Shown here: one piece after another, positions 1,572 to 60,569 of the stretch
How positions within the stretch are numbered: the first letter of the stretch is position 1
Layout: every line of letters begins with the position of its first letter
Assembly (NCBI GenBank): GCA_900315255.1
Contig: OMYH01000024.1
Span: 740-64,739 of the forward strand
Reading direction: 5' to 3'
Length of the DNA: 64,000 bases
Source: an uncultured Eubacteriales bacterium
Lineage (GTDB): Bacteria > Bacillota > Clostridia > Oscillospirales > Acutalibacteraceae
Translations under genes and position numbers: made by a program
The notes under the pieces: generated by a model
Database searches by the model: none
Seen by the model: only the letters and a program-made list of their open reading frames with translations
What the model was told of the DNA's origin: nothing

Positions 1572-4500
1572 ACTTACAATGACCGCATTCGGCCCCTATA
1601 GCGGCACAGTAACGGTAAATATGGACGAACTCGGCACACATGGGCTGTACCTCATCACAGGCGATACGGGCGCAGGAAAGACGACTATATTCGATGCGAT
1701 AACTTACGCTCTCTACGGCGAAACGAGCGGTTCCAAGGATAATAAAAGCAGAACTGCAAAAATGATGCGTTCAAAGTACGCCGGCAAGTCCGTTGAAACG
1801 AGTGTTGAGCTTACATTTGAATATCGTGGGAAGATCTATAAAATAACCAGAAAACCCGACCAGGAGGTTCAAAGCAAAAGGGATCCCGACAAACTTGTTA
1901 CACGCACTTCTAAGGTAGAGTTGATTCTGCCAGATCCCGGTGCGCTGCCCATGACCAAAGACAAAGATGTCACAAAAGCTATAACCGATATTATCGGCTT
2001 GGATAAGAACCAGTTCTGCCAGATCGCCATGATCGCACAGGGCGAATTCATGAAGCTGATCAAAGCCGACACCACAGAACGACAGAAGATATACAGACAC
2101 ATCTTCAAGACAGAACTGTATGATGAGCTTGCAACCCGCGTTAAAGACGACAGGAGCGAGGCAAAAAAAGTCAGGGACGATCAGGAAAATATAATCAAGA
2201 ATATGCTTTCCGAGATACAAGCTCCCTCTGATTACGGTCGGATCGATGTGATCAACAAAATAAAAGAGGACAATTTTTCCGAGAATAATAAGCTCGACTC
2301 TTTAGACGAGCTTATCGAATACGACCGCAGGCTTCGTGAAGATTCGGAGAAACAGGAAAAAGAACTGGAAAACCAAAAGGAAGTACAGAGCAAAAAGATA
2401 GACAAAGTCAAGGCAGCTCATGAAACAAAGCAGCAGCTTGACGACAATAACAAGCTGTTATCCGATAAGCAGGTTACTCTGAACGAAAAAACAGAAGAGC
2501 TTGACAAAGAGCAGCAGCAAAACGAGTATTTCAAAAAGCTTCGCAACGATACCACCCTGCTCGAAAACAGCCTTGCCGACTATGACAGCATGGAAAGCTA
2601 TGCTAAAGAGAGCAGCATACTTACAGCTAATATAGAGAATGAGAACAACAGGCTTTCCCTGCTTGATCAGACCAAGACATCTAAAGAAGAAACTCTCGGA
2701 ATCAAGAAAACCGAACTTCAAAGCGAAACACTGCAAGGTCTTGACGTTAAGCTTGAAAGTCTGAACAACGAATCAAATAAGCTTTACGATGAAGATAAAA
2801 AGCTCAATGAGCTTGCACAGGGCTATAACGAGATCACAGGAGAGGAAAAGACTCTTGCCAGACTCAAAGACAGCTTTATCACCGCACTCGATGACTGTGT
2901 TGCTGCAAAAGCGAAATATGCGGGCGAACTCGCAGGCTTTGCAGACTATCAGAAGGAAATGCTCACGCTGATGCAGCAGCAGACCGCCGATAAAGAGAAC
3001 AGGGTAAAGAACAAGGAAGCACGGCTCGACTCTTTAAGCAACGCAGGCGAAAGACTTATCAAAGCAGAAAACCAAATAGCCGAGGTAAAAGCCCATATCG
3101 AGAAAATCGGCCGCCTCTCTTTAGACAAGAAATACCTCGATTCTCTCTATAAAGACATCAAAGCATCGGAGTTCTATCTTCAGGAAAGTCTTCAGACAGC
3201 TAAGAACGCAAACAGAGCCTATGCCGATGCTTATGAGCTTTTCCTTAATAATCAGGCAGGTCAGCTTGCAAAGGAGTTAAAAGACAACACTCCATGCCCC
3301 GTGTGCGGTTCGCTGTCACACCCGAGGATTGCTCTGCTCCCCGATCATGCGCCAGACAAGAACAAGGTAGATAAGCTAAAAGCAACAGCAGACAAGGCTG
3401 AATCAGAGCGTGAGCAGCGTGAAAAACAGAGAGATACTCTCCAAGCGACATACAACGAAAAACTCAGCGCTCTGAATGACGCCGCAAAGGAATTGTTCGG
3501 AGAAGAATACAGTTTTGAGAAATTCGATAGCTATGTATCTGCTAAGACAGAACAGCTTGATCGTAATATGCAGGCTTGCAGCATGGAATTAGACAACGCC
3601 AGAGCAGATAACGATCTCAGGAAAAAGCTTGCCGAAGAGATCAAATCGGATAAGGATAAAATAGAAGCGGAAAAGAACGAGAACAGCAAGCTCCGTGAAG
3701 CTATCGCAAAGTATGAAGAGCAGTCAAAAAACACTCGCTCGGAATTCGATGAATTCATACACGAAACAGCTCCTCGTGATTTAGCCAAACTCAATATCAC
3801 GCACAATATTGACGACAGCTTCACTATTATCCGCACAACGAAGCTGCCATCTTCACAGAAAGCCGAAAATAGCTTGCGCAGCTATACTTCTTCGTTTAAC
3901 GATACCGAAGATAAGATCAGAGCCATAGAACAACTCAAGCATACCTTTGTTGAAAAGGGCAGCGATCAGCTCGGTAACGACTTCACTCTTGAAAATGCTC
4001 CCCTGAAAATAAGCGACAATCTTAAGGGTATGCAGGATCGTATTCGTATTGTGAATCAGAACAAGGAAGACGTTACCGGCAAAATAAAAATAAAAGAAGA
4101 CCTTGATCGTTATATCGAGCAGTTAACGAAAGATATCGAAAACTGTAAAAACAGTATTAACGTCATCAACAACAAGCTGACAGAATTCCGCACGAAGAAG
4201 ACTCACTGCGACGAGGAATACAAAAAGCTAAAAGAGAAGCTGAAGTATGAAACAAAAGCAGAGGTTAAACAGACTATTGAGCTCAACTCGGGCTTGATCA
4301 CTCAACACGACAAGAAGCTTAATGACCTGAACAGCGAGGTTCAGACCGTCAGAGACGAGATAAGCACATTAAACGGCACTATTAGACAGCTTGAAGAGAG
4401 CTTTGATGAATCGTACCTTCTTGACATAGAAGAACAGTATCACATCCTGACAGATATTGAACACGCACTTAAAGAATGCAGAGAGTCACTTAACGATGTC

Positions 4501-5217: not shown

Positions 5218-5314
5218 TTAAGGAGACACTGATTAAATCGAGTGCCGAAGTTGCGCCGTCAGATTTTTAGGCAAATTGTGCGAAAAATCCGCAGGAATAC
5301 TGACGTATTTCAAG
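5218..5314 (+). mobile_element. MITE-like repeat copy 1: arm A only (97 bp), ending at the central motif GACGTATTTCAAG
   Basis: Nearly identical to the arm A portions of 16281..16377 and 40400..40496. It starts TTAAGGAGACACTGATTAAATC. No arm B or right terminal repeat follows. Confidence 0.85.
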
Positions 5315-6036
5315 TGCAGATCGCCTGTGCCTGTCCTGACCTTGTAGGAATACTCGCCCTCGCCGACAATATAGGAGTTCTTTTTCGTATCGTAATAGGT
5401 ATTCATGCTGCCGCCACGGGAGGAAAAATCCATTTTATACCCGACGCCGCTCGCAATACCCACAGAAACATCTCCGTCCTTTGAAGTCAATTCAGACTCC
5501 ACGGCATAAACATTCTCGCAGACAATATTCCCATCGCCCGACTTGACATTGATACTGTCACAATTAAGATTTTTCAGAACGACCTCTCCATCGGTATTGA
5601 TGTTAATACTTCTGAGATTATTGGCTATTGCTCTCGGAACACGAATTTCAAGTTTTTTGTATGCGTCTGTTATCTTTACATCGTTATTCTCAACAAAGAA
5701 GAACGAAAATTCATTATCACTGTACTCATATGATAATCTCTCGTCCTCTCTTAACTGACGGGTAGCCGCCTCTTCAACGAAATAACTTTCTCCGTCATAT
5801 GCGATTATCTCAACCCTTCCGCCAACCCAATCGACATTCAGCGTGTTGATCTCATCAGGGGGATAATATTCTCCCATAACGTAGTATAAAGACATATCCG
5901 TAGGGTCATAATTAGAAAGCTTGATCATATCGCCGTATACCGAACCGGTAAGCATCGTGTTAAGACCGTTCATGAGCATAACAAGCGCAATAAAAATCAC
6001 GGAGAAAACAGACAAAACAATACCACGAAGCTTCAT
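5233..6036 (-). CDS. DUF4097-like (putative adhesin, beta-helix repeat) membrane-anchored protein; the last 26 codons and the stop come from repeat copy 1
   Basis: It has an N-terminal TM/signal anchor and repeated GD(G/V)xV beta-helix-like motifs (SGDGNIV, DGDVSV, TGDLHL). The start lies 3 nt after the pduL stop. The C-terminal LKYVSIPADFSHNLPKNLTAQLRHSI is encoded by the repeat. Confidence 0.65.
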   Translation of the reverse strand: MKLRGIVLSVFSVIFIALVMLMNGLNTMLTGSVYGDMIKLSNYDPTDMSLYYVMGEYYPPDEINTLNVDWVGGRVEIIAYDGESYFVEEAATRQLREDERLSYEYSDNEFSFFFVENNDVKITDAYKKLEIRVPRAIANNLRSININTDGEVVLKNLNCDSINVKSGDGNIVCENVYAVESELTSKDGDVSVGIASGVGYKMDFSSRGGSMNTYYDTKKNSYIVGEGEYSYKVRTGTGDLHLKYVSIPADFSHNLPKNLTAQLRHSI

Positions 6037-6756: not shown

Positions 6757-6853
6757 TTTAGGAGACGCTGATTAAATCGAGTGCCTATATTGCGAAGTCA
6801 GATTTTTAGGCAAATTAGTTGAAAAATTCGCAGGAATACTGACGTATTTCAAG
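6757..6853 (+). mobile_element. MITE-like repeat copy 2: diverged arm A only
   Basis: It aligns over its full length with copy 1 (TTTAGGAGACGCTGATTAAATCGAGTGCCTATATTGCGAAGTCAGATTTTTAGGCAAATTAGTTGAAAAATTCGCAGGAATACTGACGTATTTCAAG) with about a dozen substitutions. It ends at the same central motif. Confidence 0.75.
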
Positions 6854-6884
6854 AATTTTTATCAATACGAAAGAATGTGATATT

Positions 6885-8340: not shown

Positions 8341-11300
8341 TTAGAATTGATCTTCTTCACGTTTACGGCAAACTGCAAATACAAAGAGTGCCGTAAGCAT
8401 AGCCACTGCGTAACCAATAGCATTTCTGCTGTCGCCTGTCTTTACAGGATCTGCAGAGCCGCCGCCCGATTGCTGCGGAATAGGATTATTGACAACTGTT
8501 GTGGTTGTGGTCGGTGTTGTGTTCTGCTTGTTGTCAGTCTCCGTCTTAGGCGTATCGGAATCTTTCTTCTCTGCTGTTCCGCCGCCGATTTGTGTCTGCG
8601 ATGTATCGGTCGTCGGAGTATCGCTCGGGGTTTCGCTTGTTGTATCCGTCGTCGGTTCGGGAACAACTGTCGTATCTGTTTCAGGTTCCGGAACTACCGT
8701 CGTATCCGGGTTCGTCTCGGGAACTACCGTCGTATCGGGGTTCGTTTCGGGAACTACCGTTGTATCGGGGTTCGTCTCGGGAACTACCGTCGTATCCGTT
8801 TCACTCTCGGGTACTGTTGTATCCGTAGTCGTGTTGGTATCGGTGGTTATCTCGGGTTCGGAATCCTTCTCTACCGTTCCGCCCTCGATCTTGGTATTGT
8901 CGGAATCGGTTTCTGATACCGATTCTGTATCCGTTGTAGTTTCAGGTACTATAACATCGGTTGTTGTATCGGGTTCGGAATCCTTCTCGACCTCCGGTTC
9001 GATATCCGTGGTCGTATCGGGTTCAACATTCTCCGAAACAGGCTCAGAATCCTCTGAAACAGGCTCGGGATCGGGGATAATAACTATTACATCTACACTG
9101 TCATCGTCCTTTACGCCTTCCTTAGCCTCTGCGGTAACAGTGCTTGTTATTGTCGGATCCTCTGTGGAATAATCAACATCGGATACCTTTACCTCGTACT
9201 TAACAACTACAGTCTGACCCTTCTCTATTCTGTCGATAGTGAGCGTGTCGCCGTCAGCCGTGTACTTGGGATCGTAGCTGATAAACTTACCGGGGAGATC
9301 CTCTTTTACAATGACCTCTGTAAGAGCTGTGTCACCTGTGTTTGTGATAATATCCGTGTAAATGATCGTTCCGTCGGGTGTATATTCATACTCCGTAACA
9401 GTCTTAACGACCTTGATAGCTGCCGCATTTACGGGAACATCCTTCGTATCGTTATCGCTCACACCTTCAGCTGCAGCTGCCTTAACAGTTGTCGTGTGTA
9501 TAAAATCGGAAATATTCTCATTTGTAACTACTGTCGAGAATGTGAATGTATAGCTTTCTCCAACATCAAGCTTCGGAATAGTGAACGAGCTGCCGTCTGT
9601 TTCATACTCAACATCAAATGTTCCGTCAATGCTCTCTGTTACAACTACATTTGTAAGAGGAACATCTCCCTTGTTTGTGATAGTATCGGTCCAGACTACT
9701 GTTTCGCCGATCTTGTATGTTCTGCCGTCAACTGTCTTTGTAACCTCGATCTCGGGATCGATGATCAATGCAAAGTTTGTGTCTGTTGCAGATACCTTGT
9801 CGCTCGATTCGGCAATACTGTCTTCGCTTGCAGTTGCTGTAACTACACTCGTGACCCTGCCGTCAGCAACATTCTCATCATTTGCGGGTACTACATAATA
9901 GTAAGTGTAGCTCTCGCCGGGCGCAAGCTCTGCTATCATGATATGGTCGTTCATGATAACTGCACCGTTTGTCAGTGTGAATGTACCGTCCAGATCTTCG
10001 GTAACCTTTATGTTAGTAAGCTTTGTATTACCGTCATTGGTAACAATATTTGTGAATACAACATTGTCGCCCTTGCGGTAGTTCTGATTATCCACAAGCT
10101 TCGTTACGTTTATCGAATAGTGCACAACTTCAACGAGTGTGCTGTCATCGTCGCTTACACCTTCGTCCGCAGTTGCTGTCAAGTTATTGATTACCGTACC
10201 GTCTTCGGCGATCGGTGCATCCTTCGCATTGATAGTATAGAGAAGAGTTACGCTTTCACCCGGTTCGAGCTTATCGATCGTTACAGAACCATTCTTGTTG
10301 AGCGTACCGTCTGCGACGTCTGTATATCCGCCCTTTGTGAAGGCTTCTCGTACTACTACATTTGTAAGCGTTGTATCGCCTGTATTTGTTACGACATCAA
10401 TGAAGACAATATCCTCCAGGTCATTGTAAACCTTCTTCTCATATGTTGTACTTACCTTGATATCATATTCTGCCGGCTTAGGTGTATCCTGCGATTCAAC
10501 TCTATAGACATTTACCGTACAGGTATCGTCGTACGATACGTTCTGTGCCGTTTCAACATCTGCATTGTTAATGATAATATCATCAACCGCAACGCTTGTG
10601 GGAACCTTAAAGTAGAAGGTGTAGCTCTCGCCCGGCTTCAGATCGGGGATCTTCGCTGTTGTACCCATTGCGGTAAGACCGTCCTGCGGAACGTACTGTC
10701 CGATCAGATCCTGGTTTACAACCACATTCGTCAGCTTCGTTTCGCCTGTGTTCTTAACGGTCTCAGTGTATACTACTGTTTCGCTGTCTTTGTACAAAGG
10801 CTTATCGGGTGTCATTGTGATCTCAACTGCGGGAGTAAGCTCGAACTCGATCTCTCTCTCAACACTGTCACCAAGGATATTTGTACAATATACAACTATC
10901 TTGTTCTTTCTTGAAGAGTAATCTACAGCATTCTCCGGAACAACGAATGTAACATCATCGAACTTCTGATCCCTTGCGATCGTTGTTTCGTATGTTACTT
11001 CGTCCTGATCGTTGACAACCTTGATCGTGTAGCTGTTTACATAAACAACGTCGTCCTTCTTTGTTGTCTCTCTCTCGGGAGTATCTGATGTTTCAACAAC
11101 AAATCCCTCGTCAACAGGCTTTGTAAATGTAAGCTTGAAGGTGTTCTTGTCGAATGCCAGATCTTCAACAGGATCGGGTCGCGAAGCAAGCACAACCTCG
11201 CCCCATTTGTATTCGGTGTGGCGGAGAAGGCCTTTTTCGCCGGATAGTATATAAGAACTATTATTTTGACTAACTTCTCTCATGCTATATTGACTGTCAT

Positions 11301-13410
11301 ATTCGGTCGCAGTATTGTAGCTTCTTATAAACTCACCGTCAAGATAATATACATTTCCTTTATGCGCCCAAGTACCGTCCCTGTAATATGCACCTAATCG
11401 GGCATCTGAATAATCATAGTGTCCATTAATCTCTGTAGACATCATCATCACTTGATTAACGACATTATACGGTGTACCTTTTTCTTTGTTTTGCAACATA
11501 TCAAGCGGAAAACTGATTTGATACCCATCATAAGTATCTTCTATTATCTCGTCTGTGTTCTTTTTCACTCCGCTTTCAAAATCGCCGTACTTTGCATAGG
11601 CTGCAGCATCTGTATGAACCCATGTGCCTTTGACTCCTATACTTTCAGTATATGGAAGGAATGATTTAACTGAAATTTTGTCAGCATTATCAAAATCAGG
11701 CATATATGACTCGTTGCCAATAACGTTAAAGCCACACTCGTTAACAATCTCAAGGTATTTATTCATTAGCTCATAGTTATTACTCTTAAAGTCCAGTACA
11801 ATCTTTAAGGGAGAGTAAACATTAGTTTGATTGTAATAACGCCAACCACCGTTTTTATAAGAAGAACTTCTGACAGATCCTGTTCCGCCAAATTCAGCAT
11901 ATGTGTTTATTCTACCTCGATTGCCTGCAATACTTCGAATATCCCGGATGAAACCTGAACTAGTTCCTGTTTCATCCGGGATACTGGAATCATCATAAAC
12001 CCTTGTCCAGTTTGTGCTATAGTATAGTTGAATTCCATTCGATAAGTACCCGCTATTCCAGCCACCAACAGAATCCACACTATATTCAAAGCCTAATTCA
12101 TTGCTAGTACTGTTATAGTATTGATTATTGAAAGTAGCTTGAGCAGCTTTCGTTTCAAAGGAGTCACTAGAAAGCGCCTGCAGTTTGTCTAAGAAATTGC
12201 TGATATTTTCGTTAGAAGTTTCCCCACTTAGATCTACTGTAATCCTAAAAGGATTCGCAACAGAATAAGGATATAAATAAACATACTCCCAAGAATTATT
12301 AGAAAGATAGGACTTAACAGCATCATATCTACAATCGCTTTTATCTATCTCATTTCTAATGTTAATAGTATAATCTGTTCCCGGTATTCTCGTTAACCCA
12401 ATATTCTCCAATACATATCCGTTATCTATTAGGTCAAGCATCAACTCGTTACCGCCTGAATACGAAAATCTTTGTGCTGATTCAAGCATCCAGCCGCCGT
12501 TATTGTAGAACAACTCGTCAGGCAAGCTGACTAATTTTCCGTTAATCACTGCAACCCTGCCATAGCACATATGAAGTTGGTCCGGAGAATCAGCATGCTC
12601 TTGAAGCAATTGTGCTAAAATGTGTAGATCTTCTTCTGTTTCTTTAATACCTGATACACTTGTAACAGAACTATTATAATACTTGGTATAATCAAAATCG
12701 AATACTCTGCCTAAATCAGATGATCCATCTGACACCGCTTCAAGAGGTCTGTCAAAATCAACACTTGATTTTGTATTGAAAACAATATTATCGCCTACAC
12801 GGGTCTGTACTAGTTCTGTCATCTCTGACATCGTATTCATAGGAAGAACCACATTGTTATCACTGTCAATATCAACATAAAACCTGTTCGTCGTTGCTGA
12901 GCCTTTAGTTAGTTCAAATATAGCATTATCTATTTCAAGCATTGAATCGCTGTCTATATTTGTGCTGTGCGCAAGCTTAACGATAAGTGAACATAACGTT
13001 TGACTAATATTGCCTAATGTTGAAGTAATACTATAAAGTGCACCCGTTGTATAAAAGCTATATTGTATTTTTTCTATTTCCTTGTAGCTTTCATTATACT
13101 GGCTGGCAAAATATGTTTTATTGTCATTTACATACTCTGTATTATTCTCTCTTGCAGTATAATCTCCGTTTTCCAAATAGGTAAAAACATTATCTTCAAC
13201 CAATCCAACAACCTGAGAGTCAGAAGTGCCGTCAGAATAATTAATATTTACCTTAAATGAAGCTCGACGAAGCGAATAAACAACATCAGAAACAGAAGAT
13301 CGTCCCAACTTATAGGAGACTGCATCTTTGAGAGTAGAGCAATGTTGATATTCAGTGCCTCCCCAATTATTTTGATATGATACATATTCGTCAAACGAAC
13401 AAATAACCAT
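8341..13410 (-). CDS. Surface protein body: novel N-terminal region, about 8 DUF11/CARDB-like repeats, Thr/Pro/Glu-rich stalk and an LPXTG-like sorting signal (PVKTG + TM + RKREE)
   Basis: Repeated TN(T/D/K)G(D/N)T.LTNVVV motifs are typical of the DUF11 conserved repeat domain. The C-terminus is DPVKTGDSRNAIGYAVAMLTALFVFAVCRKREEDQF. There is no signal peptide at its own N-terminus. Confidence 0.8.
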   Translation of the reverse strand: MVICSFDEYVSYQNNWGGTEYQHCSTLKDAVSYKLGRSSVSDVVYSLRRASFKVNINYSDGTSDSQVVGLVEDNVFTYLENGDYTARENNTEYVNDNKTYFASQYNESYKEIEKIQYSFYTTGALYSITSTLGNISQTLCSLIVKLAHSTNIDSDSMLEIDNAIFELTKGSATTNRFYVDIDSDNNVVLPMNTMSEMTELVQTRVGDNIVFNTKSSVDFDRPLEAVSDGSSDLGRVFDFDYTKYYNSSVTSVSGIKETEEDLHILAQLLQEHADSPDQLHMCYGRVAVINGKLVSLPDELFYNNGGWMLESAQRFSYSGGNELMLDLIDNGYVLENIGLTRIPGTDYTINIRNEIDKSDCRYDAVKSYLSNNSWEYVYLYPYSVANPFRITVDLSGETSNENISNFLDKLQALSSDSFETKAAQATFNNQYYNSTSNELGFEYSVDSVGGWNSGYLSNGIQLYYSTNWTRVYDDSSIPDETGTSSGFIRDIRSIAGNRGRINTYAEFGGTGSVRSSSYKNGGWRYYNQTNVYSPLKIVLDFKSNNYELMNKYLEIVNECGFNVIGNESYMPDFDNADKISVKSFLPYTESIGVKGTWVHTDAAAYAKYGDFESGVKKNTDEIIEDTYDGYQISFPLDMLQNKEKGTPYNVVNQVMMMSTEINGHYDYSDARLGAYYRDGTWAHKGNVYYLDGEFIRSYNTATEYDSQYSMREVSQNNSSYILSGEKGLLRHTEYKWGEVVLASRPDPVEDLAFDKNTFKLTFTKPVDEGFVVETSDTPERETTKKDDVVYVNSYTIKVVNDQDEVTYETTIARDQKFDDVTFVVPENAVDYSSRKNKIVVYCTNILGDSVEREIEFELTPAVEITMTPDKPLYKDSETVVYTETVKNTGETKLTNVVVNQDLIGQYVPQDGLTAMGTTAKIPDLKPGESYTFYFKVPTSVAVDDIIINNADVETAQNVSYDDTCTVNVYRVESQDTPKPAEYDIKVSTTYEKKVYNDLEDIVFIDVVTNTGDTTLTNVVVREAFTKGGYTDVADGTLNKNGSVTIDKLEPGESVTLLYTINAKDAPIAEDGTVINNLTATADEGVSDDDSTLVEVVHYSINVTKLVDNQNYRKGDNVVFTNIVTNDGNTKLTNIKVTEDLDGTFTLTNGAVIMNDHIMIAELAPGESYTYYYVVPANDENVADGRVTSVVTATASEDSIAESSDKVSATDTNFALIIDPEIEVTKTVDGRTYKIGETVVWTDTITNKGDVPLTNVVVTESIDGTFDVEYETDGSSFTIPKLDVGESYTFTFSTVVTNENISDFIHTTTVKAAAAEGVSDNDTKDVPVNAAAIKVVKTVTEYEYTPDGTIIYTDIITNTGDTALTEVIVKEDLPGKFISYDPKYTADGDTLTIDRIEKGQTVVVKYEVKVSDVDYSTEDPTITSTVTAEAKEGVKDDDSVDVIVIIPDPEPVSEDSEPVSENVEPDTTTDIEPEVEKDSEPDTTTDVIVPETTTDTESVSETDSDNTKIEGGTVEKDSEPEITTDTNTTTDTTVPESETDTTVVPETNPDTTVVPETNPDTTVVPETNPDTTVVPEPETDTTVVPEPTTDTTSETPSDTPTTDTSQTQIGGGTAEKKDSDTPKTETDNKQNTTPTTTTTVVNNPIPQQSGGGSADPVKTGDSRNAIGYAVAMLTALFVFAVCRKREEDQF
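8660..8819. repeat. 30-bp coding tandem repeat (about 5 copies) encoding (TTVVPETNPD)n in the stalk of the surface protein
   Basis: The unit GGAACTACCGTCGTATC(C/G)GGGTTCGT(C/T)TCG repeats head to tail at 8660, 8690, 8720, 8750 and 8780. Confidence 0.85.
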
Positions 13411-13435
13411 ATCAAAATCTCTGACAATACGATAA

Positions 13436-13574
13436 TTAAGGAACCACTGATTAAATCACGTCCTTCGGACTGAGCACCAAATTTGCTTGCATCTTTTTGT
13501 CAAATTGCACTCAAAATCCTTGAAATACGTCGACGGTGCAACTTCGGCACTCGATTTAATCAGTGTCTCCTTAA
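13436..13574 (-). mobile_element. MITE-like repeat copy 3 (139 bp): arm B plus the terminal 43 nt of arm A, inserted inside the surface protein gene
   Basis: It starts TTAAGGAACCACTGATTAAATC and ends GATTTAATCAGTGTCTCCTTAA. It differs from copy 5 (18671..18811) by a 2-nt indel and one substitution at the internal junction. Confidence 0.9.
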
Positions 13575-13917
13575 TGTTACCAGTGAAATTCAGACCAATA
13601 ACATCATCGTTATATTCATAAGTTATACTTTGAATATCCTGGATTTTAAGATCGGTCATCTCGTCATTAAAAATCATATTGAAAACTTTAGTGTTTACAT
13701 TAGAATCATAGTGAACATTGCCTTTATAATAGCTACTAACGTTATTGTCGTAAATGCCGCTATAGACTAATGCCGGTACATTCACCACCTTCGGTAAATG
13801 ACTGTCTTCCTCTGCGCTTGCCGACAGTACCAAAACGCTCATCATCATACTCGTCAAAAGCATAACAATAAGCACGAATGCCAGCGACCGCTTACATTCT
13901 CTTCTAATGCTGTCCAT
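13456..13917 (-). CDS. N-terminal fragment of the surface protein (signal peptide plus about 110 aa) ending in a repeat-encoded tail
   Basis: The signal-like N-terminus is KRSLAFVLIVMLLTSMMMSVLVLSASAEE. The last 41 residues (KETLIKSSAEVAPSTYFKDFECNLTKRCKQIWCSVRRT...) are translated from repeat copy 3. Confidence 0.7.
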   Translation of the reverse strand: MDSIRRECKRSLAFVLIVMLLTSMMMSVLVLSASAEEDSHLPKVVNVPALVYSGIYDNNVSSYYKGNVHYDSNVNTKVFNMIFNDEMTDLKIQDIQSITYEYNDDVIGLNFTGNIKETLIKSSAEVAPSTYFKDFECNLTKRCKQIWCSVRRT

Positions 13918-14145
13918 AACATCACCATCCCTTTCTTAAATAAAAATGCACACTTTTCATTCGGCGAACACAACACCTTCACAAAGGCATCATATTCTTC
14001 TATATATTATACCATATGCGTTCACAAATTTCAATAATTGTTTTACTGTTTATATATTTTTAGTGAATACGCACATTTTATGTGTGCTTTAAATTCGCAT
14101 TAAGAATATTAAGGAGATGAAAAAAGTCAGAAGATGTCTTTTTTG

Positions 14146-15843: not shown

Positions 15844-16280
15844 AATACAATTCCTCCTGTTATTTTTATATGGTACATCTTTGTCGGATCATTAACCTAT
15901 TCTTTAATCATATTATACACCATCAATCTAAAGAACATCTGAAGAAATCGGAATATTATAAAAAATTTTATTATTTATTATTTATCGCCTGAGAGCAGGC
16001 TTGCGTAGGGAGGGTTTGACCGTTGAGATAAATTTTCAGAAAACTATTCTATACTTTTTCTATAGAACTTTATATAAAAAGCTCCCCCCAACTATCCTGT
16101 ACTTGTTCCAATCAAAAAAGCTCAGGGTGAATTATTAAAAGCTTTTTACTTATAAAAATGAAACGGCAAACCGTGATTTCTCACACTAATTCATGACTCC
16201 TTATTCCTACCTAAAAACACTCTACACTCCAAACTGCTGTAATAATATTATCACAGCATTAATATAATTTCAAAGAGGTA

Positions 16281-16395
16281 TTAAGGAGACACTGATTAAA
16301 TCGAGTGCCGAAGTTGCGCCGTCAGATTTTTAGGCAAATTGTGCGAAAAATCCGCAGGAATACTGACGTATTTCAAGTAATAAGTGGTTCCTTAA
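16281..16395 (+). mobile_element. MITE-like repeat copy 4 (115 bp): full arm A, a TAATAA joint, and only the terminal 12 nt of arm B
   Basis: TTAAGGAGACACTG...GACGTATTTCAAG TAATAA GTGGTTCCTTAA. Arm A is identical or nearly identical to copy 1. Confidence 0.9.
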
Positions 16396-16436
16396 TTTCT
16401 ATCTTTGTAAACAATTTGTTAAAAGCAAAATACCCC

Positions 16437-16465
16437 TTGATTTTTTACGGAATATGGTATAGAAT
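16437..16465 (+). promoter_or_regulatory. Putative sigma-A promoter of groESL
   Basis: TTGATT (16437..16442), a 17-nt spacer, then TAGAAT (16460..16465). It lies immediately upstream of the CIRCE operator. Confidence 0.55.
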
Positions 16466-18670: not shown

Positions 18671-18811
18671 TTAAGGAACCACTGATTAAATCACGTCCTT
18701 CGGACTGAGCACCAAATTTGCTTGCATCTTTTTGTCAAATTGCACTCAAAATCCTTGAAATACGTCCTGACGGCGCAACTTCGGCACTCGATTTAATCAG
18801 TGTCTCCTTAA
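18671..18811 (-). mobile_element. MITE-like repeat copy 5 (141 bp): arm B plus the terminal 45 nt of arm A
   Basis: It has the same architecture as copy 3. It sits between the groEL terminator and the 3' end of the HD-domain gene. Confidence 0.9.
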
Positions 18812-19924: not shown

Positions 19925-19979
19925 AAAAACGAACCTCCCGTGCAGATAGTCCGACAGCCGCACAAGAGGTATCCATGTA

Positions 19980-20074
19980 GCAGCGGAATGCAGCTGCGAA
20001 ATCGCAAGCAAAGCTTTTCGTCCTCCGACAACTTCCTGTTCGAAAGGCACTTAACGCTTCACAGCCTACTCTGC
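19980..20074 (-). promoter_or_regulatory. THF (tetrahydrofolate) riboswitch aptamer, class I, in the folE leader
   Basis: The reverse strand reads GCAGAGUAGGCUGUGAAGCGUUAAGUGCCUUUCGAACAGGAAGUUGUCGGAGGACGAAAAGCUUUGCUUGCGAUUUCGCAGCUGCAUUCCGCUGC. It contains the blocks I recall as conserved in THF-I aptamers (AGAGUAG, GCGUUAAGUG, GGA(A/U)GU..GUCG, ACGAA.GC, GCAU.CCGCU closing P1). The genomic context upstream of folE fits. Confidence 0.7.
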
Positions 20075-20287
20075 AATTATTATCTGTTAAAATTATAACA
20101 CACTCCGACAAAATAATCAACGGATTTACGTACAACTATTTCAAGTGTATTCTTTTATTATTGTGTATTGTGTAGAAATAAACTAAGAGTTTCAAATGCA
20201 TTTCCAAGCTGAAAACACAACGCTTGATTGAACCGTCGTCCCAAGCTGCGATCATGCGAGCATGCCAAGCTTAAAATCCTTGTTTAA

Positions 20288-39200: not shown

Positions 39201-40387
39201 CCGATCTCGACTGCGAGGTCACTGTTGACCCCTCGGGTATGGGCAGCATGATGTCAATGATGACGGGCGAAGGAATATCGATCAATGTTTTCTGCGACAA
39301 CTTTGACACTCTCCAGGAGGCTTCAACAATGATTGCCGACACACTGAACACAGTGGACGGAGCGCAGAACGCCTTCAACGGAATTGAAGACACCACACAG
39401 GAGCTTCGTATCAGCGTTGACAAAGAAAAGGCTATGAAAAAGGGGTTGACCGTTGCGCAGGTATTCATGGAAATTTCTGGCATGATGACAAGCGAAAAGC
39501 AGGCTACTCTGATTGAAACAGGCAGTGACAGTCTGACGGTACAGGTGGTAGATGGGGCGGCAAAGGGTCTGACGGAAAAAGACATCAGAAACCACATCAT
39601 CGAAACGACCGATATGAAGGGGGAAAAGATAACGGCAAAGCTGTCCGATATAGCCACGATCACAAAAGCAGACAGTCTGAACAATATTACAAGAATCGAT
39701 CAGAAGCGTTACCTCAATGTCACCGCAGATGTTGCCGAGGGCTTCAACTCAACGAATGTTGCAAATGCCGCAAAGACAGAAATAGATAAGCTCAATCTTC
39801 CCGATGGTGTAACATATGAGCTTACGGGATCGTACGAAACGACTATGGACGCAGTAATTCAGCTCGGAGAAATGCTCCTGCTTGCGGTAGCGTTCATCTA
39901 TCTGATAATGGTAGCGCAGTTCCAGTCGCTGCTGTCGCCGTTCATCATCATGTTCACTATCCCGCTTGCCTTCACGGGAGGATTTATCGCCCTGATAATA
40001 GCAGGACTTGACATGAGCGTTATTGCGATTATCGGATTTATTATGATGGCAGGAATAATTGTAAATAACGGTATCGTTCTTGTCGACTACATCAATCAGC
40101 TTCGTGCGGAGGGCATGGCAAAGCGAGAGGCGCTTATTGAAGCGGGCGTCACACGAATGCGGCCTATCTTCATGACGGCTCTCACAACGATCCTCGGTCT
40201 GTCGGTGATGGCATTCAGCCGTGATTCAAGCTCGGCTATGATGCAGCCTATTGCACTTGTATGTATAGGCGGACTTATCTACGCTACGATAATGACGCTG
40301 TTCGTCGTACCTGCAATATACGATATATTCAACAAAAAGGAAATCAGAGTTATAGATAAAAAAGAGCTTGAGATCTTAGACGATTGA
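36278..40387 (+). CDS. RND-superfamily efflux permease (AcrB/HAE-like) carrying an approximately 340-aa coiled-coil insertion in the first extracytoplasmic loop
   Basis: AcrB-like blocks lie at both ends: MLPKFSVRKPLTVFVAVVLVIVLG, LPYIIIVTTYIGASPEEVE, 12 predicted TMs, and GAIIASTLTTVAVFLPIVFV. Residues about 190-530 are heptad-like and rich in E, K, Q and L. No adjacent membrane-fusion protein gene is present. Confidence 0.8.
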   Translation: MLPKFSVRKPLTVFVAVVLVIVLGVVSYLNMTPSLFPSLELPYIIIVTTYIGASPEEVEATVTRPLEQTMATLDNVKEITSSSSENYSMVSIEFEDIVNMDTVTVDLNSKLTQLTGSWDEKVGAPYIMKINPNMLPVAIVAVSKSDSTIYELSDFTKDVLENKLEGINGVASVSVGGIVEQSVEVVLSENKIKSVNDTVQTAVKKQFADAEKELDDAKTQLEDGLEQAKTGKDDIEKGKELLDEQHNEIASQLSAAEAEISSKEKELLETKLTLVDTIADLTSQKEQLTTTLSVMKEVQKAMHSILDRRDDLQNDYDTLKALQDSYSALQSKDSELQTALSAIETDSTLSEDDRNKAVEEFKSSPEYTQTKASLAETEAQMNARGVTPLTIDITVRATKSALDLANSSLDTVNTAIKELGTSFETIDDDVQKLEDGLSQMDEAINTLSETIEQLDEGAVTIKEAKTELGTQKSQAEFQMTSAATDLKISENTVNSTITQLEQSQKELDEGVKQLNETKKDTLKQADITNTITMDMISQILTAQNFSMPAGYLTGEDENMLVRVGDKFSETDDLTNLLLVDLGIDDVDPIYLSDVADINLVDNSGEIYAKLNGDNGVMVSFTMQSTAATAEVSDNIHKALEKLSEEYPDLSFTFLMDQGDYIHLIVNSVLSNLIWGGLFAIIILLFFLRDIRPTFIIACSIPISVIFAIVLMYFSGITLNLISLSGLAVGVGMLVDNSVVVIENIYRLRNNGATPVQAAVSGAVQVTGAIIASTLTTVAVFLPIVFVHGLTRTLFQDMALTIGYSLLASLIVAISLVPAMAQGMLKKQKKNKKEKGESKLFKGYRKLASFTLDHKVLLILGSIVLLVGSAYLSLKMGFSYMPSMESTQISVNVTMPDDADFESATKTTDEILKRLDTVEDINTVGAVVGSNVLSSISIGGGGGDDTSVSLYVILNDEDKLTRPISEICTEMEEKCSDLDCEVTVDPSGMGSMMSMMTGEGISINVFCDNFDTLQEASTMIADTLNTVDGAQNAFNGIEDTTQELRISVDKEKAMKKGLTVAQVFMEISGMMTSEKQATLIETGSDSLTVQVVDGAAKGLTEKDIRNHIIETTDMKGEKITAKLSDIATITKADSLNNITRIDQKRYLNVTADVAEGFNSTNVANAAKTEIDKLNLPDGVTYELTGSYETTMDAVIQLGEMLLLAVAFIYLIMVAQFQSLLSPFIIMFTIPLAFTGGFIALIIAGLDMSVIAIIGFIMMAGIIVNNGIVLVDYINQLRAEGMAKREALIEAGVTRMRPIFMTALTTILGLSVMAFSRDSSSAMMQPIALVCIGGLIYATIMTLFVVPAIYDIFNKKEIRVIDKKELEILDD

Positions 40388-40399
40388 TTAATAAGTGAA

Positions 40400-40559
40400 T
40401 TAAGGAGACACTGATTAAATTGAGCGCCGAAGTTGCGCCGTCAGGTTTTTAGGCAAATTGTGCGAAAAATCCGCAGGAATACTGACGTATTTCAAGGATT
40501 TTGAGTGCAATTTGACAGTGCGGGTCTCCGGTGGAGACCTCTGCTCAGTGGTTCCTTAA
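40400..40559 (+). mobile_element. MITE-like repeat copy 6 (160 bp): the most complete copy, with both terminal inverted repeats and a variant arm B
   Basis: It comprises arm A (97 nt, 3 substitutions), the centre GATTTTGAGTGCAATTTGACA, a unique GC hairpin segment GTGCGGGTCTCCGGTGGAGACCTCTGCTCA, and the terminus GTGGTTCCTTAA. It sits at the convergent junction between the RND gene and ispE. Confidence 0.9.
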
Positions 40560-40603
40560 TTATTCCCCGAACTGCAATGAAGCAATTCGGGGAATTTGTT
40601 TTA

Positions 40604-41449
40604 TCACAAATTTTCTGCCAGAAATACATCTCTGTATTTCGTCTTAAAGAAATCTCTGCAAGCCTCTGCTTTTCTTTTATCCTCAAACACAGCATACACT
40701 GTCGATCCGCTGCCAGTCATCACAGCACCGAGTGAACCGTCACATTCAAGCAGCTTTGACTTCAATTCAAGCAAAGGTTCATTGTGAAGCGTTTCTTCAA
40801 AATCGTTGCGAAGATTTTTGCCTATCAGCCGTACATTGTCAAGGCATTCAAGCATTCTGTCTGTCGCACAATACCCCCTCGGTTCTGCGCTGTCGACCGC
40901 CTCGAAAGCTTCTTTTGTAGATACACCGAACGGCGGCTTTACAAGCACAAAATACATATGCGGCACGGGCTTTAATCGGGTCAGGATCGTTCCCGTACCC
41001 TCCCCGAGAGCCGTTCCGCCCATTATACAAAACGGTACGTCTGCGCCTATTTTTCCCCCGAGAACATACATATCATCATCACTCAAGGGCATATCGTACA
41101 TCTCGTTTAATCCTTTAAGCACCGCCGCACCGTCTGCCGAACCGCCAGCAAGTCCTGCCTGTGTGGGAATCCTTTTCTGTATATCAATATGCAGACCTCT
41201 GTTATCACACCCTGTTTTTTCAAAGAACAGCAAAGCGCACTTCACGGCAATATTACTCTCGTCACACGGTACATCTGGATGTTCGCAGCTTACCGTTACT
41301 TTTCCGGAATCATTCGTGCAAAGTGTTACCGTATCACAAAGACTGACCGTCTGCATAACGGTTTTCACCTCGTGATAGCCGTCTGCCCTCTTTCCTGTTA
41401 TATCAAATGTCAGATTTATCTTTGCATATCCTTTAACCTGTATTTCCAT
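40604..41449 (-). CDS. ispE: 4-diphosphocytidyl-2-C-methyl-D-erythritol kinase
   Basis: The GHMP kinase motif IPTQAGLAGGSADGAA is present. The N-terminus is typical of IspE (KINLTFDITGKRADGYHEV). Confidence 0.9.
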   Translation of the reverse strand: MEIQVKGYAKINLTFDITGKRADGYHEVKTVMQTVSLCDTVTLCTNDSGKVTVSCEHPDVPCDESNIAVKCALLFFEKTGCDNRGLHIDIQKRIPTQAGLAGGSADGAAVLKGLNEMYDMPLSDDDMYVLGGKIGADVPFCIMGGTALGEGTGTILTRLKPVPHMYFVLVKPPFGVSTKEAFEAVDSAEPRGYCATDRMLECLDNVRLIGKNLRNDFEETLHNEPLLELKSKLLECDGSLGAVMTGSGSTVYAVFEDKRKAEACRDFFKTKYRDVFLAENL

Positions 41450-56874: not shown

Positions 56875-56969
56875 TTAAGGAACCACTGATTAAATCACGT
56901 CCTTCGGACTGAGCACCAAATTTGCTTGCATCTTTTTGTCAAATTGCACTCAAAATCCTTGAAATACGT
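56875..56969 (-). mobile_element. MITE-like repeat copy 7: arm B only (95 bp), ending at the central motif
   Basis: TTAAGGAACCACTGATTAAATCACGTCCTTCGGACTGAGCACC...CCTTGAAATACGT is identical to arm B of copies 3 and 5. No arm A follows. The kinase/LRR coding sequence abuts the centre. Confidence 0.9.
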
Positions 56970-59900
56970 TTCCGAACCGGTGTAACATACAGCTGTTAAA
57001 TCTGTACATTGATAAAAAGCAGCATATCCGATATCTGTCACACTTTTCGATATTTCCACCAATGTCAGAGAATCACAATACATAAAAGAATAACTGCCAA
57101 TATTCGTAACATTTTTAGAAATAACTACCTTTTCTAAATAAGTGGAACCTCGAAAAGCACTCAGGTCTATTTCTTTCACACTATCCGGAATAATGTAAGT
57201 CTTGTCATTTTTCGACTGAGGATAAAGAATCAATTTACTCATATCTTTGTTAAACAAAACCTCGTCCTTAGACGAATAATACTTGTTTTGACTGTCAACA
57301 TCTATGCTTGTTAATTTGGAACAGCGATTAAAAGCATATCTCCCTATACTAACCACATTACCCGGAATATTGACTGCCGAAAAGCCATCACATTCAGCAA
57401 ATGCACTCGATTCAATGCTCGTCAGTTTTGCAGAGAACGTTATGTCTATCAGATTATCGCAATCAAAAAACGCACAATAACCTATTTCAGTAACACTATC
57501 GGGCATTTTATATGCTGACAACGGGTTTCCGGCTGGATATGCCATTAAAATTGTCTTATCTTTATTGAACAATACACCGTCTTGAGAAGAATAGTACTTG
57601 TTTTTGTTGTCGACATCTATGCTTTTTATGCTTTTGCAATCACAAAACATACCATCGGCAATCTCAGCAATATTCGCCGGAACTGTAAACTTTTCCGCTT
57701 TTTTTCCTGCAGGATATGCTATCAGTTCAGTCATGTTTTTATCATACAATACTCCGTCTTCAGATTTATATGATTTATTATTGCTGTCGACTTTTATTTC
57801 CGATAGATTATCGCATTCCCTAAATACACCCGATCCAATATATGTAACATTCGCAGGGATATTTACGTTAGTTAAACCGTTGCAATAGCAAAAAGCGTTA
57901 GAAAGAATTGTTGTTACACTTTCGGGAATTTCAAGGCTTGATAAGCTTATACATGAATTGAATGAGTCACTGCAAATTGTTCGAACACTGTCGGCTATTT
58001 CTATATCAGATAAGTTTGTAAACCAACTAAACGCACCTGCTCCAATGCTCTTTACTCCATATTCAACAACGACCTTTTTCACATTGTTTTCGTAACTAAC
58101 ATAACCGGAATTTGAACCCAAAGAAGCATCATAATCCCACATATATCCTTTTCCGTAAATGTACAGCGTACCGCTCTCGTAAAATGCCCACTTTACATTA
58201 TCGGATGGTCCCGATTCGCTTTCATTATCATAGTACTCATTACTCTGTCCGCAGTTGCCCTCTGCAATCAGCTTTGTTTTTTCTTTTTCACGCGGCGACG
58301 GCGGTATATCGGTGTCGATCTCATCGTCTTCTTCCGAATAATAGTCTTCCACCCAATATTCGGAGTCGTCCCAATAGCTCTCACTGTCTTCATACATAAA
58401 CCAATATTCATCAGTATATCTGTCTGTCTCGCTTTCTTCTTCGAAACTTTCTTCACCGGCATAGGAATTAGTTCGGGAATTGGATTTTTTGATAATATAA
58501 CTGATATAATCAATATCCGAATCATAAACCTCGTCTTTATATGGTTGTGTATCCGTGATATATATCCCGATACCGACAACCATCGAAACAATAATAACAA
58601 CCGCCGCAAGCCACAATATAACAATTCCTGTTTGTCTTGTCATAAACTTAGTCTTTGCTCGTTCGTTCTTGTTCAACACCTCAATCTCAAACACTCCCGG
58701 CTCACGCTTTGCAGCTTTTGGAGTTATCGTTTCATTATTATCGAACATCTCGTCATCAGGATCGATCTCCACAAAGATGTTATCCGTTGCTCCGGGTATC
58801 CCCGACAGCGTTGTGTATGTCTTAGGTTTAGTTTCCGGTTTGATCGCCGTTTCAGGTATCACGGAAAACGCTGTCTGCAACTTCTGCTTGAATTCTTTAA
58901 CAGGCAAAACTGTCTGTGACTTCGGCTTCGGCAAAGGTTCGCTTTTCTGCTTCGGTTCTTCGACAGGCAAAGCTGTCTGCGACTTCGGCATCTGCAAGGG
59001 TTCGCTTTTCTGCTTCGGTTCTTCGACAGGCAAAGCTGTCTGCGACTTCGGCTTCGGCAGAGTTTCGCTTTTCTGCTTTGGTTCTTCGACAGGCAAAGCT
59101 GTCTGTGACTTTGGCTTTGGCAGAGATTCTCTTTTCTCCTTCGGCTGTTCAACAGGCATAGATATCTGTGATTTAGGCTTTGGTAACGGTTCGCTTTTCT
59201 GCTTCGGTTCTTCAACAGGCAGTGCTATCAGTGATTTAGGCTTTGGTAACGGTTCGCTTTTCTCCTTCGGCTCTTCAACAGGCATAGATATCTGTGACTT
59301 TGGCTTTGGCAGAGATTCACTCTTCTCCTTCTGCTCTTCAACAGGCAGTGCTATCAGTGATTTAGGCTTTGGTAACGGTTCGCTCTTCTCCTTCGGCTGT
59401 TCAACAGACATAGATATCTGTGATTTAGGCTTTGGTAACGGTTCGCTCTTCTCCTTCTGCTCTTCAACAGGCAGTGCTATCTGTGATTTAGGCTTTGGTA
59501 ACGGTTCGCTTTTCTCCTTCTGCTCTTCAACAGGCATAGATATCTGTGACTTAGGCTTCGGGTCTTCATTAGGCAATACCGTCTGAGACCTCGGCTTTGA
59601 CAGTGGTTCGCTCTTATTTTTTTGTTTTTCGATAAATGAAATATATGACCGATGATTGCGTTTTATCTTCTCGACACTCTCGATCCTCTCGTCCTGCAGC
59701 AGTGCCGATTTGAACTCGCCCATCGTCTGAAAACGGTCAGCAGATCTTATACTTAACGCCTTCAGAATTGCGTCTTCTTTAGACTTCGAAATATTAATCC
59801 CCAGCTCATGCGGCGGAACAAGCTCATCATCTTCGATCCTTTCAAACGAATCGGGGGGACGCATTCCCGCTATCGCAAAATAAAACGTAGCTCCCAAACT

Positions 59901-60569
59901 GTACACATCGGTATATGGTCCCTGCTTGCTCTTTCGGGAATATTGCTCCTTGGGGGCAAAACCGGGCTTGAGAATAATATCAAGACTCCTGCTCTTGTCA
60001 CCAAGACTGTACCTTGCTGCACCAAAATCAAGCAGAATGACCTTCCCGTTCCTCTTGATACAAATATTGTCGGGCGTTACATCACGATGTATTATTCCCT
60101 TTTTGTGTACCGAAGCAAGTGCGTCCATCACTGGTACTACTACTCTTTGAGCGTCCATGACGCTGATTCTTCCACCCTGCTGCTTGATGAAGACATCAAA
60201 GCTCATCCCTTCGATGTAATCCATAACAAAATATGCCGTTCCGTTTTCTTCAAAGTAGCTATAGATGCGAACAACTCCGCTGTTATCAATGAATCTTGCA
60301 AGTGTTTCGGCCTCTTTCAAAAAGAGTTTTCTGCCATAGAGATAATTCTCCCCACGCTCGCCGGGATAAGGAAAAACATAATTGCTTTTTCTATAAGATA
60401 ATGTTTCAGGAAAGTATTCTTTTATTGCAAAAATCCTTCCGCTTTTATATTCCCTAACTTTGTATGTAATGCCGAATCCGCCCTGTCCGAGAGTGTTTTG
60501 AATAATATACTGCCCCGCAAGAATAGTTCCGTTCGGTAACGCAAAAGGAAAAGTTTCATTTATAGCCAT
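56895..60569 (-). CDS. Hanks-type Ser/Thr protein kinase, 21-aa repeat linker, single TM, acidic segment and extracellular BspA-type LRR domain; the C-terminal 24 aa come from repeat copy 7
   Basis: Kinase motifs GQGGFG, FAIKEY, HRDVTPDN and DFGAAR are present. About 11 repeats of KSEPLPKPKSQ(I/T)ALPVEE(P/Q)K(Q/E) follow. The TM is GIVILWLAAVVIIVSMVVGIGIYI. LRR units (SIGAGAFSWFTNLSDIEIADSVRTICSDSFNSC...) resemble those of the protein at 33351..34787. Confidence 0.85.
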   Translation of the reverse strand: MAINETFPFALPNGTILAGQYIIQNTLGQGGFGITYKVREYKSGRIFAIKEYFPETLSYRKSNYVFPYPGERGENYLYGRKLFLKEAETLARFIDNSGVVRIYSYFEENGTAYFVMDYIEGMSFDVFIKQQGGRISVMDAQRVVVPVMDALASVHKKGIIHRDVTPDNICIKRNGKVILLDFGAARYSLGDKSRSLDIILKPGFAPKEQYSRKSKQGPYTDVYSLGATFYFAIAGMRPPDSFERIEDDELVPPHELGINISKSKEDAILKALSIRSADRFQTMGEFKSALLQDERIESVEKIKRNHRSYISFIEKQKNKSEPLSKPRSQTVLPNEDPKPKSQISMPVEEQKEKSEPLPKPKSQIALPVEEQKEKSEPLPKPKSQISMSVEQPKEKSEPLPKPKSLIALPVEEQKEKSESLPKPKSQISMPVEEPKEKSEPLPKPKSLIALPVEEPKQKSEPLPKPKSQISMPVEQPKEKRESLPKPKSQTALPVEEPKQKSETLPKPKSQTALPVEEPKQKSEPLQMPKSQTALPVEEPKQKSEPLPKPKSQTVLPVKEFKQKLQTAFSVIPETAIKPETKPKTYTTLSGIPGATDNIFVEIDPDDEMFDNNETITPKAAKREPGVFEIEVLNKNERAKTKFMTRQTGIVILWLAAVVIIVSMVVGIGIYITDTQPYKDEVYDSDIDYISYIIKKSNSRTNSYAGEESFEEESETDRYTDEYWFMYEDSESYWDDSEYWVEDYYSEEDDEIDTDIPPSPREKEKTKLIAEGNCGQSNEYYDNESESGPSDNVKWAFYESGTLYIYGKGYMWDYDASLGSNSGYVSYENNVKKVVVEYGVKSIGAGAFSWFTNLSDIEIADSVRTICSDSFNSCISLSSLEIPESVTTILSNAFCYCNGLTNVNIPANVTYIGSGVFRECDNLSEIKVDSNNKSYKSEDGVLYDKNMTELIAYPAGKKAEKFTVPANIAEIADGMFCDCKSIKSIDVDNKNKYYSSQDGVLFNKDKTILMAYPAGNPLSAYKMPDSVTEIGYCAFFDCDNLIDITFSAKLTSIESSAFAECDGFSAVNIPGNVVSIGRYAFNRCSKLTSIDVDSQNKYYSSKDEVLFNKDMSKLILYPQSKNDKTYIIPDSVKEIDLSAFRGSTYLEKVVISKNVTNIGSYSFMYCDSLTLVEISKSVTDIGYAAFYQCTDLTAVCYTGSETYFKDFECNLTKRCKQIWCSVRRT
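58890..59625. repeat. 63-bp coding tandem repeat array (about 11.5 units) in the kinase juxtamembrane linker
   Basis: On the plus strand, units such as CTTCGGTTCTTCGACAGGCAAAGCTGTCTGCGACTTCGGCTTCGGCAGAGTTTCGCTTTTCTG recur head to tail with subfamily variation. Confidence 0.9.

Follow-up and report, generated by a model that had tools for sequence, protein, structure and literature searches.

Within a 64,000-nucleotide stretch of DNA from an uncultured Eubacteriales bacterium of the Acutalibacteraceae (contig OMYH01000024.1, positions 740 to 64,739; hereafter the window), two neighbouring minus-strand open reading frames (ORFs), 13456..13917 and 8341..13410, are parted by a short repeat with TTAA on either side. 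On the sequence, these are one gene cut by a mobile repeat. Our explanation, which we hold to be very probable, is that a MITE (miniature inverted-repeat transposable element) of the IS5 group of insertion sequences (ISs), mobilized in trans, inserted into an adhesin-like gene for a surface protein of approximately 1813 aa and left it a pseudogene, the 135-bp form found in the window being a secondary deletion. A first-pass annotation, made from the letters of the window alone, had already proposed the split, and had offered two accounts of it: a recently inactivated adhesin-like gene or an excision-dependent on/off switch.

One gene in two pieces

Read on the minus strand from 13917 to 8341, the locus spans 5577 nt, a multiple of three, with codon 154 (the TGA at 13456-13458) as its sole internal stop. 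Removal of 135 bp, that is, the core of the repeat and one TTAA, gives the junction AAC ATT AAT TAT CGT and a continuous ORF of 1813 aa; the protein across the mended junction reads ...LNFTGNINYRIVRDFDMVICSF..., and the empty-site sequence for the locus is AACATTAATTATCGT. A recheck of the sequence bears out all that the first-pass annotation had said of coordinates and letters, including the positions and shared frame of the two ORFs, the TTAA-flanked insert of exactly 45 codons (counting one TTAA) with its single TGA, and the seamless junction. Its figure of roughly 1850 aa is right as a count of codons with the insert included (1858), while the rebuilt protein is shorter.

The N-terminus encoded by the 5′ fragment reads like a signal peptide, in that the N-region is basic, the hydrophobic core spans 22 residues and ASA|EE comes after it; the fragment itself is 131 rather than 153 aa long where an assembly has the full-length element. 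In the 3′ part the frame runs for ~1700 codons past the second TTAA, and the mechanically defined ORF (8341..13410) has 1689 aa. It carries five DUF11/DUF7507 repeats (Pfam PF24346, 120.8 bits, and PF01345, 105.1 bits, five stretches each and above threshold; TIGR01451 matches the protein at 52.3 bits), then a Thr/Pro/Asp-rich stalk, and finally PVKTG, a hydrophobic, transmembrane-type stretch and RKREE. To the eye this C-terminus resembles a sorting-type signal; none of the NCBIfam anchor models matched it, and sortase genes were not searched for. The 1689-aa part lacks a separate signal peptide, as had been claimed from the sequence.

Three homologues only were found for the N-terminal region (P0001–P0003, 32–35% identity), in a search that also missed the window's own 1689-aa and 131/153-aa clusters, although both are present in the collection, so that its silence on close relatives is uninformative. 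All three keep the putative signal peptide (MML..SMM..V..LSASA) together with the motifs LAHSTNID, TTNRFYVDI..VLPM and QTRVGDN, which in the window lie downstream of the element. The earlier proposal of one gene split by a mobile repeat is therefore upheld by homologues that hold both parts within a single ORF.

Table 1. Features of the adhesin locus and copies of the repeat family in the window.
Feature	Coordinates	Strand	Remarks
5′ gene fragment	13456..13917	−	Putative signal peptide and 114 native codons, 39 element-encoded codons, TGA; 153 aa
3′ gene fragment	8341..13435	−	Native coding resumes at 13435, straight after TTAA
Candidate promoter	14006..14034	−	TTGAAA, 17-nt spacer, TATAAT, TG extension; consensus match only; upstream of 5′ fragment
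MITE core	13440..13570	−	131 nt here; 41-nt-deletion derivative of the 172-nt element at the same site elsewhere
TTAA target-site duplication, 5′ side in gene orientation	13571..13574	−	Empty sites at other copies; family statistics
TTAA target-site duplication, 3′ side in gene orientation	13436..13439	−	Empty sites at other copies; family statistics
Terminal inverted repeat GGAGACACTGATTAAATC	13553..13570	−	In L021 and L086, next to a gene for an IS5-family transposase
Second terminal inverted repeat GGAACCACTGATTAAATC	13440..13457	+	16/18 positions match the other end
Family copy	5218..5314	+	Right half gone; 95-nt deletion relative to L003, reaching 12 bp into flank
Family copy	6757..6859	+	TTTA flank; 140 nt missing against the 234-nt version in L003
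Family copy	16281..16395	+	Upstream of groES; TTAA both sides; 65-nt internal deletion relative to L002/L003; empty in L123
Family copy	18671..18811	−	Downstream of groEL; TTAA both sides; 39-nt internal deletion relative to L002
Family copy, long variant	40400..40559	+	TTAA both sides; site exactly empty in L136
Family copy	56875..56969	−	Left half gone; 157-bp deletion relative to L127, ~100 bp of flank included

The element, its family and its target site

At full length the element at the adhesin site has no coding capacity, with stops in all three forward frames; the TGA that closes the 5′ fragment on the gene strand in the window falls in the second terminal inverted repeat. A 36-mer from the end of the element occurs five times in the window against zero expected, and altogether the window holds seven copies or part-copies (Table 1), six of them intergenic or at gene ends. 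The terminal repeat GGARMCACTGATTAAATC, sought in a single genome for each GTDB species, occurs at no fewer than 115 loci. Among the matches listed, most belonged to Ruminococcus, Oscillospiraceae, Lachnospiraceae and Dialister metagenome-assembled genomes from rumen and gut; 60 small elements with paired inverted termini could be extracted, most often 159 or 171 nt long, and the flanking 4-mers were identical in 34 of 58 elements as compared with one of 58 for 3-mers or 5-mers.

The termini of the element are invariant across 14 family members, and the flanking 4-mers vary (TTAA, CTAA, CTAG, TAAA, CAAG and others, with a preference for Y-T-A-R). Since the duplicated 4-bp flanks vary in this way, TTAA is target duplication and not element sequence. 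Empty sites within the species lead to the same end. At the groES copy, contig L123 has exactly 176 bp (172 + TTAA) fewer (L123 ~590–700, corresponding to window 16230–16450), and in L136 a single TTAA replaces the copy at 40400 (L136 ~2080–2140, corresponding to window 40350–40620); these empty-site strains are 0.04–0.6% diverged from the window. Two exact empty sites in the same species prove the 4-bp duplication and mean that, inside this species, the element was either acquired or lost with precision. That TTAA is a target duplication, as the earlier annotation supposed, is thus supported by both the empty sites and the 34 family members with identical flanks; the empty sites are known from two other copies and not from the adhesin copy.

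The link to a transposase comes from two loci in other genera than that of the window, Pyramidobacter (L021) and Oscillibacter (L086), where the terminal repeat stands 40–60 nt upstream of the gene that encodes a 330-aa protein with DDE_Tnp_1 and DUF772 domains that is 52% identical to annotated IS5-family transposases; both loci were chosen by their terminal-repeat/transposase pattern, and one IS end is visible at each. Hallmarks of the IS5 group in ISfinder descriptions are a 4-bp YTAR duplication and ends starting with GGA. The YTAR duplication, the GGA ends and the adjoining transposase gene together thus point to a MITE using an IS5-group transposase, and on these features we class the repeat as a non-coding palindromic MITE of IS5 type. 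No transposase gene was found in the window, nor does one lie between the terminal-repeat pairs that stand 1.2–1.6 kb apart in L023 and L110.

The course of events that we propose is as follows. An IS5-family DDE transposase, not encoded in the window, would mobilize the non-autonomous MITE in trans. The MITE, a near-perfect palindrome of 172 nt whose terminal inverted repeats measure 18 nt and which duplicates a 4-bp YTAR target, would have inserted at the TTAA in codons 113–115, parting the signal peptide from the remaining protein and bringing in stop codons. In its native 176-bp form the insertion would also shift the frame, and the mRNA would acquire a very stable hairpin. The locus as assembled would then be a disrupted gene, a pseudogene, and the 135-bp form in the window would reflect a secondary 41-nt deletion, either triggered by the palindrome or, more likely, an artefact of library or assembly.

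The same site in other assemblies

Look-ups with the neighbouring MutS-like gene and with the gene fragments brought up 11 additional contigs of this species, from metagenomes of rumen type. The 343-nt 5′ flank can be compared in ten of the 11 (L126 begins downstream of the junction) and shows 0–3 substitutions; in all ten the element sits at the identical TTAA, its interior varying by assembly. In L002, L003, L123 and L125 the core is 172 nt and the insertion 176 bp (remainder two on division by three), giving a frameshift and three gene-frame stops, and L124 agrees with this form to the limit of the contig. The window (core 131 nt, insertion 135 bp) is in frame with one stop, L001 (128 nt, 132 bp) in frame with three stops, and L005 (141 nt, 145 bp) frameshifted. 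We take the 172-nt form to be ancestral because, from end to end, it agrees in length with family members of other genomes. A collection of 15 billion proteins has the 131-aa N-terminal fragment on 16 contigs and the 153-aa form on one, a 65,997-bp NCBI contig. Given the 172-nt form in other assemblies and the single contig with the 153-aa form, the in-frame state with one stop, which the first-pass annotation ascribed to the insert, belongs to this one contig and not to the insertion as such.

Could the two ORFs be separate genes after all, or the contig a chimera, the repeat being no more than a spacer between genes or the seam of a mis-join? Mis-joins at this repeat do occur in metagenome contigs, one of which (L004) runs into an unrelated region. 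Here, in contrast, both junctions recur in at least ten independent assemblies with those 0–3 substitutions in the 5′ flank, the frame is seamless once the element and one TTAA are removed, and homologues are continuous across the junction; we regard a spacer or mis-join as extremely unlikely. In L004 itself (2890–3100, MEGAHIT), the contig enters the adhesin-site MITE, exits by a different right arm, GATTTATTCAGTGGTTCC, with CTTG as flank, and continues into a PRPP-synthetase/Pth/Mfd region foreign to the window. This junction is either a chimeric mis-join or a rearrangement or recombination between copies.

No empty adhesin site was found among the ~17 contigs on record, so that comparing related assemblies at this site, a check put forward with the original proposal, turned up filled alleles throughout; the reconstructed 1813-aa protein is likewise absent from the 15-billion-protein collection. 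A scan of JGI metagenomes for the filled and the empty junction gave no matches, in a collection without the species and thus uninformative on empty alleles. The insertion is fixed in everything sampled.

Deletions within copies

Each of the seven window copies falls short of its counterpart in another assembly, whether that counterpart was observed or inferred. Nearly all of the deletions have one end within a few nt of the palindrome centre, with junction microhomology of 0–3 nt, and they run in one direction, at times leaving the element (12 bp of flank at 5218, ~100 bp at 56875); the 41-nt deletion of the adhesin copy likewise sits beside the centre. Deletions are all-or-none by assembly: seven of seven copies are deleted in the window, five of five in ERZ1061835 scaffold_2386 (L001/L127/L135) and two of two in ERZ920183 (L005), as against none of seven in L002 and L003. 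Each deletion allele is unique to one assembly, and scaffold_2386, which outside the repeats matches the window at 100% identity for >13 kb, differs from it at every copy. We consider a library or assembly artefact at strong hairpins to be the more likely cause, at odds of about two to one, and real palindrome instability to be possible.

A stronger version of the latter would have the MITEs hyper-unstable in vivo, such that centre-anchored, one-sided deletions and precise TTAA-to-TTAA losses outpace point mutations and remodel the adhesin gene and the genes abutting other copies. We think this unlikely. If it were true, gene remodelling would be reversible or progressive, and the in-frame, single-UGA form in the window would be an intermediate towards reactivation.

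A related idea is that the 41-nt deletion is real and was selected, restoring the frame and removing two of the three stops, so that low-level read-through of the UGA yields a full-length protein that has an insert of 45 residues. The window form keeps the frame and has a single TGA, and the 132-bp deletion variant in L001 is also in frame, both of which would fit. Yet the 153-aa form occurs on a single contig, L001 retains three stops, L005 (145 bp) is out of frame, and a hairpin of −51 kcal/mol would still stand in the mRNA. Moreover, the deletion is not gene-specific, because all comparable copies in the window, intergenic ones included, have comparable deletions. Partial rescue of this kind therefore seems very unlikely to us. 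We also considered ribosomal bypassing (hopping) and rejected it: beyond the element there is no in-frame landing codon to match the ATT that precedes it, and the native insert measures 176 nt.

A conserved hairpin with a strand bias

The full-length element is one long, near-perfect palindrome that is predicted to fold at −76 kcal/mol as RNA (z = −9.9) and at −42 kcal/mol as DNA, the window form at the −51 kcal/mol given above as RNA. In an alignment of 14 members, taken from different genomes, pairing holds for 96% of cells, and compensatory double changes occur at 22 of 62 pairs, as compared with 10.9 in shuffles and 1–8 in slid controls. Cells with G-T number 71 against six with A-C. The same strand folds better in 14 of 14 elements, with mean energies of −74.6 and −55.5 kcal/mol for the two strands, a gap of ~19; at the adhesin gene the better-folding strand is the mRNA strand. 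No Rfam family scored above threshold at the element, sub-threshold eukaryotic miRNA hairpins being the only hits. Conservation of the hairpin and its strand bias suggest that selection acts on the RNA hairpin or on one of the DNA strands, as has been described for ERIC, Correia and similar elements, and perhaps a role at the level of RNA or of a single strand.

Age and fate of the insertion

The L123 lineage, 0.4–0.6% diverged in the flanking genes, is without the groES copy and has the full-length element at the adhesin gene. As L123 is filled at one site and empty at the other, the disruption is older than at least one other insertion. The description of the gene as recently inactivated holds as to the disruption; "recently" is doubtful, since all ~17 contigs carry the insertion, among them one lineage without another of the copies.

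Relative to the window, the downstream ORF shows no differences in L001 and L003 and one in L002. In L123 (3528–8591, corresponding to window 8341–13410), it has 157 changed codons (86 synonymous, 71 non-synonymous) and two in-frame indels with no stop. This allele is a mosaic, in which blocks in the DUF11-repeat region are 14–16% diverged over a background of 0.4–0.6%, a pattern that indicates recombination or gene conversion among alleles or paralogues. Because the changes cluster in these blocks, they resemble recombination imports and cannot show selection after the insertion. Dating by dN/dS on the downstream ORF was tried and set aside, given too few differences among L001–L003 and the mosaic in L123.

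The alternative of a reversible switch deserves its own weighing. Under it, the MITE would be lost precisely between its TTAAs, by slipped mispairing at the hairpin or by transposase, in a subpopulation of cells, which would restore the adhesin gene and give a slow phase variation between on and off. In E. coli, long palindromes between short direct repeats are prone to precise deletion, a precedent for such an event. Single-TTAA presence/absence is seen at the two other copies, in one case in a strain with two mismatches in 5 kb to the window, and nothing of the candidate promoter or of the 5.4-kb coding sequence has been lost. However, that polymorphism is equally explained by recent insertion, and shows only that gain or precise loss occurs in the species. 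At the adhesin site itself there is no evidence for the on/off switch of the first-pass annotation: the ~17 contigs show no empty allele and records of the intact protein are lacking, the element has neither a recombinase nor an excisionase associated with it, and the insertion predates the split from the L123 lineage. A switch is in our judgement quite unlikely.

Three considerations nevertheless tell against a MITE-made pseudogene as we propose it. The public record amounts to ~17 contigs only, and a rare empty allele could escape it; the 5-kb downstream ORF is open in every allele, which makes continued selection conceivable; and no autonomous IS was found for the species, the loci in other genera showing just one IS end.

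Relationship to known elements

Like the IS5 group (IS5, IS1021) and IS5-derived MITEs, the element makes a 4-bp YTAR duplication and has inverted repeats starting with GGA; as with IS5-group elements, its terminal repeat borders a DDE_Tnp_1/DUF772 gene (L021, L086), and it is multicopy with presence/absence polymorphism. With the IS of those two loci it shares only the 18-nt terminal repeat, its interior being unrelated; it differs, too, in being one long palindrome throughout, with no autonomous partner seen in the species. In form it also resembles ERIC/IRU, YPAL, Correia (CREE) and RUP elements, bacterial palindromic MITEs acting as RNA hairpins, which are likewise whole-length imperfect palindromes of 100–200 nt, mostly intergenic, at TA-containing targets, and with a strand-specific fold rich in G-U pairs. 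It has no sequence similarity to these, however, duplicates the 4-bp YTAR rather than TA, and differs from ERIC- and Correia-type MITEs in a host range of rumen and gut Clostridia and Dialister.

Rickettsia palindromic elements (RPEs) offer another parallel, as palindromes of ~130–170 nt inside ORFs, and the window copy, too, is a multiple of three. The native insertion here is 176 bp, not a multiple of three, and meets three gene-frame stops at full length and one in the window; owing to these stops, the element adds no peptide segment, unlike RPEs. An RPE-like, in-frame coding insertion was accordingly rejected for both the 176-bp form and the 135-bp form. Finally, IS492 in the Pseudoalteromonas eps locus, a case of phase variation by excision, resembles the present locus as a mobile element in a surface-structure gene with empty sites elsewhere in the species; the adhesin gene differs in having no empty allele, no dedicated excision enzyme and no known circular product.

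Other copies and neighbouring features

Two of the other copies touch genes. The deletion at 5218 joins the minus-strand ORF 5233..6036 to the element, making it 267 aa in the window; in L003 this DUF4097-family gene encodes 245 aa, its stop codon made by the TTAA at the edge of the MITE. The deletion at 56875 takes the 3′ end of a kinase/leucine-rich repeat (LRR) gene. This ORF (kinase/LRR_5, 56895..60569, minus strand) encodes 1224 aa and ends inside the element, as compared with 1228 aa in L127, and contains at 58756–59622 approximately ten tandem 63-bp (21-codon) repeats of 62–86% identity.

A 234-nt variant of the element, seen in L003 (~11975–12110, corresponding to window 6757–6859) and at window 40400–40559, has an extra GC-rich module of ~62 nt that reads CAGTGCGGGTCTCC.GGTGGAGACC...GGCGAGACT. 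Either a nested insertion or an alternative module could account for it. Apart from the repeats, a tetrahydrofolate (THF) riboswitch was identified at 19979–20075 on the minus strand (80.6 bits; gathering threshold 36), upstream of a gene pair for GTP cyclohydrolase I and an HD-domain protein.

Significance

For annotation, the two ORFs are best recorded as one MITE-disrupted pseudogene and not as two genes. Short-read assembly is also easily misled by the element, in that contigs break off, are wrongly joined or lack sequence at every copy; a reading frame or a count of stops inside it is unsafe to interpret from a single assembly. The event itself is an ordinary one, the probable knock-out of a large gene for a putative surface protein by a MITE, with no sign of a designed switch. 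As far as could be found, the family has no earlier description, and it provides a clean example of IS5-type MITEs that merits masking and annotation in rumen and gut Clostridia and Dialister.

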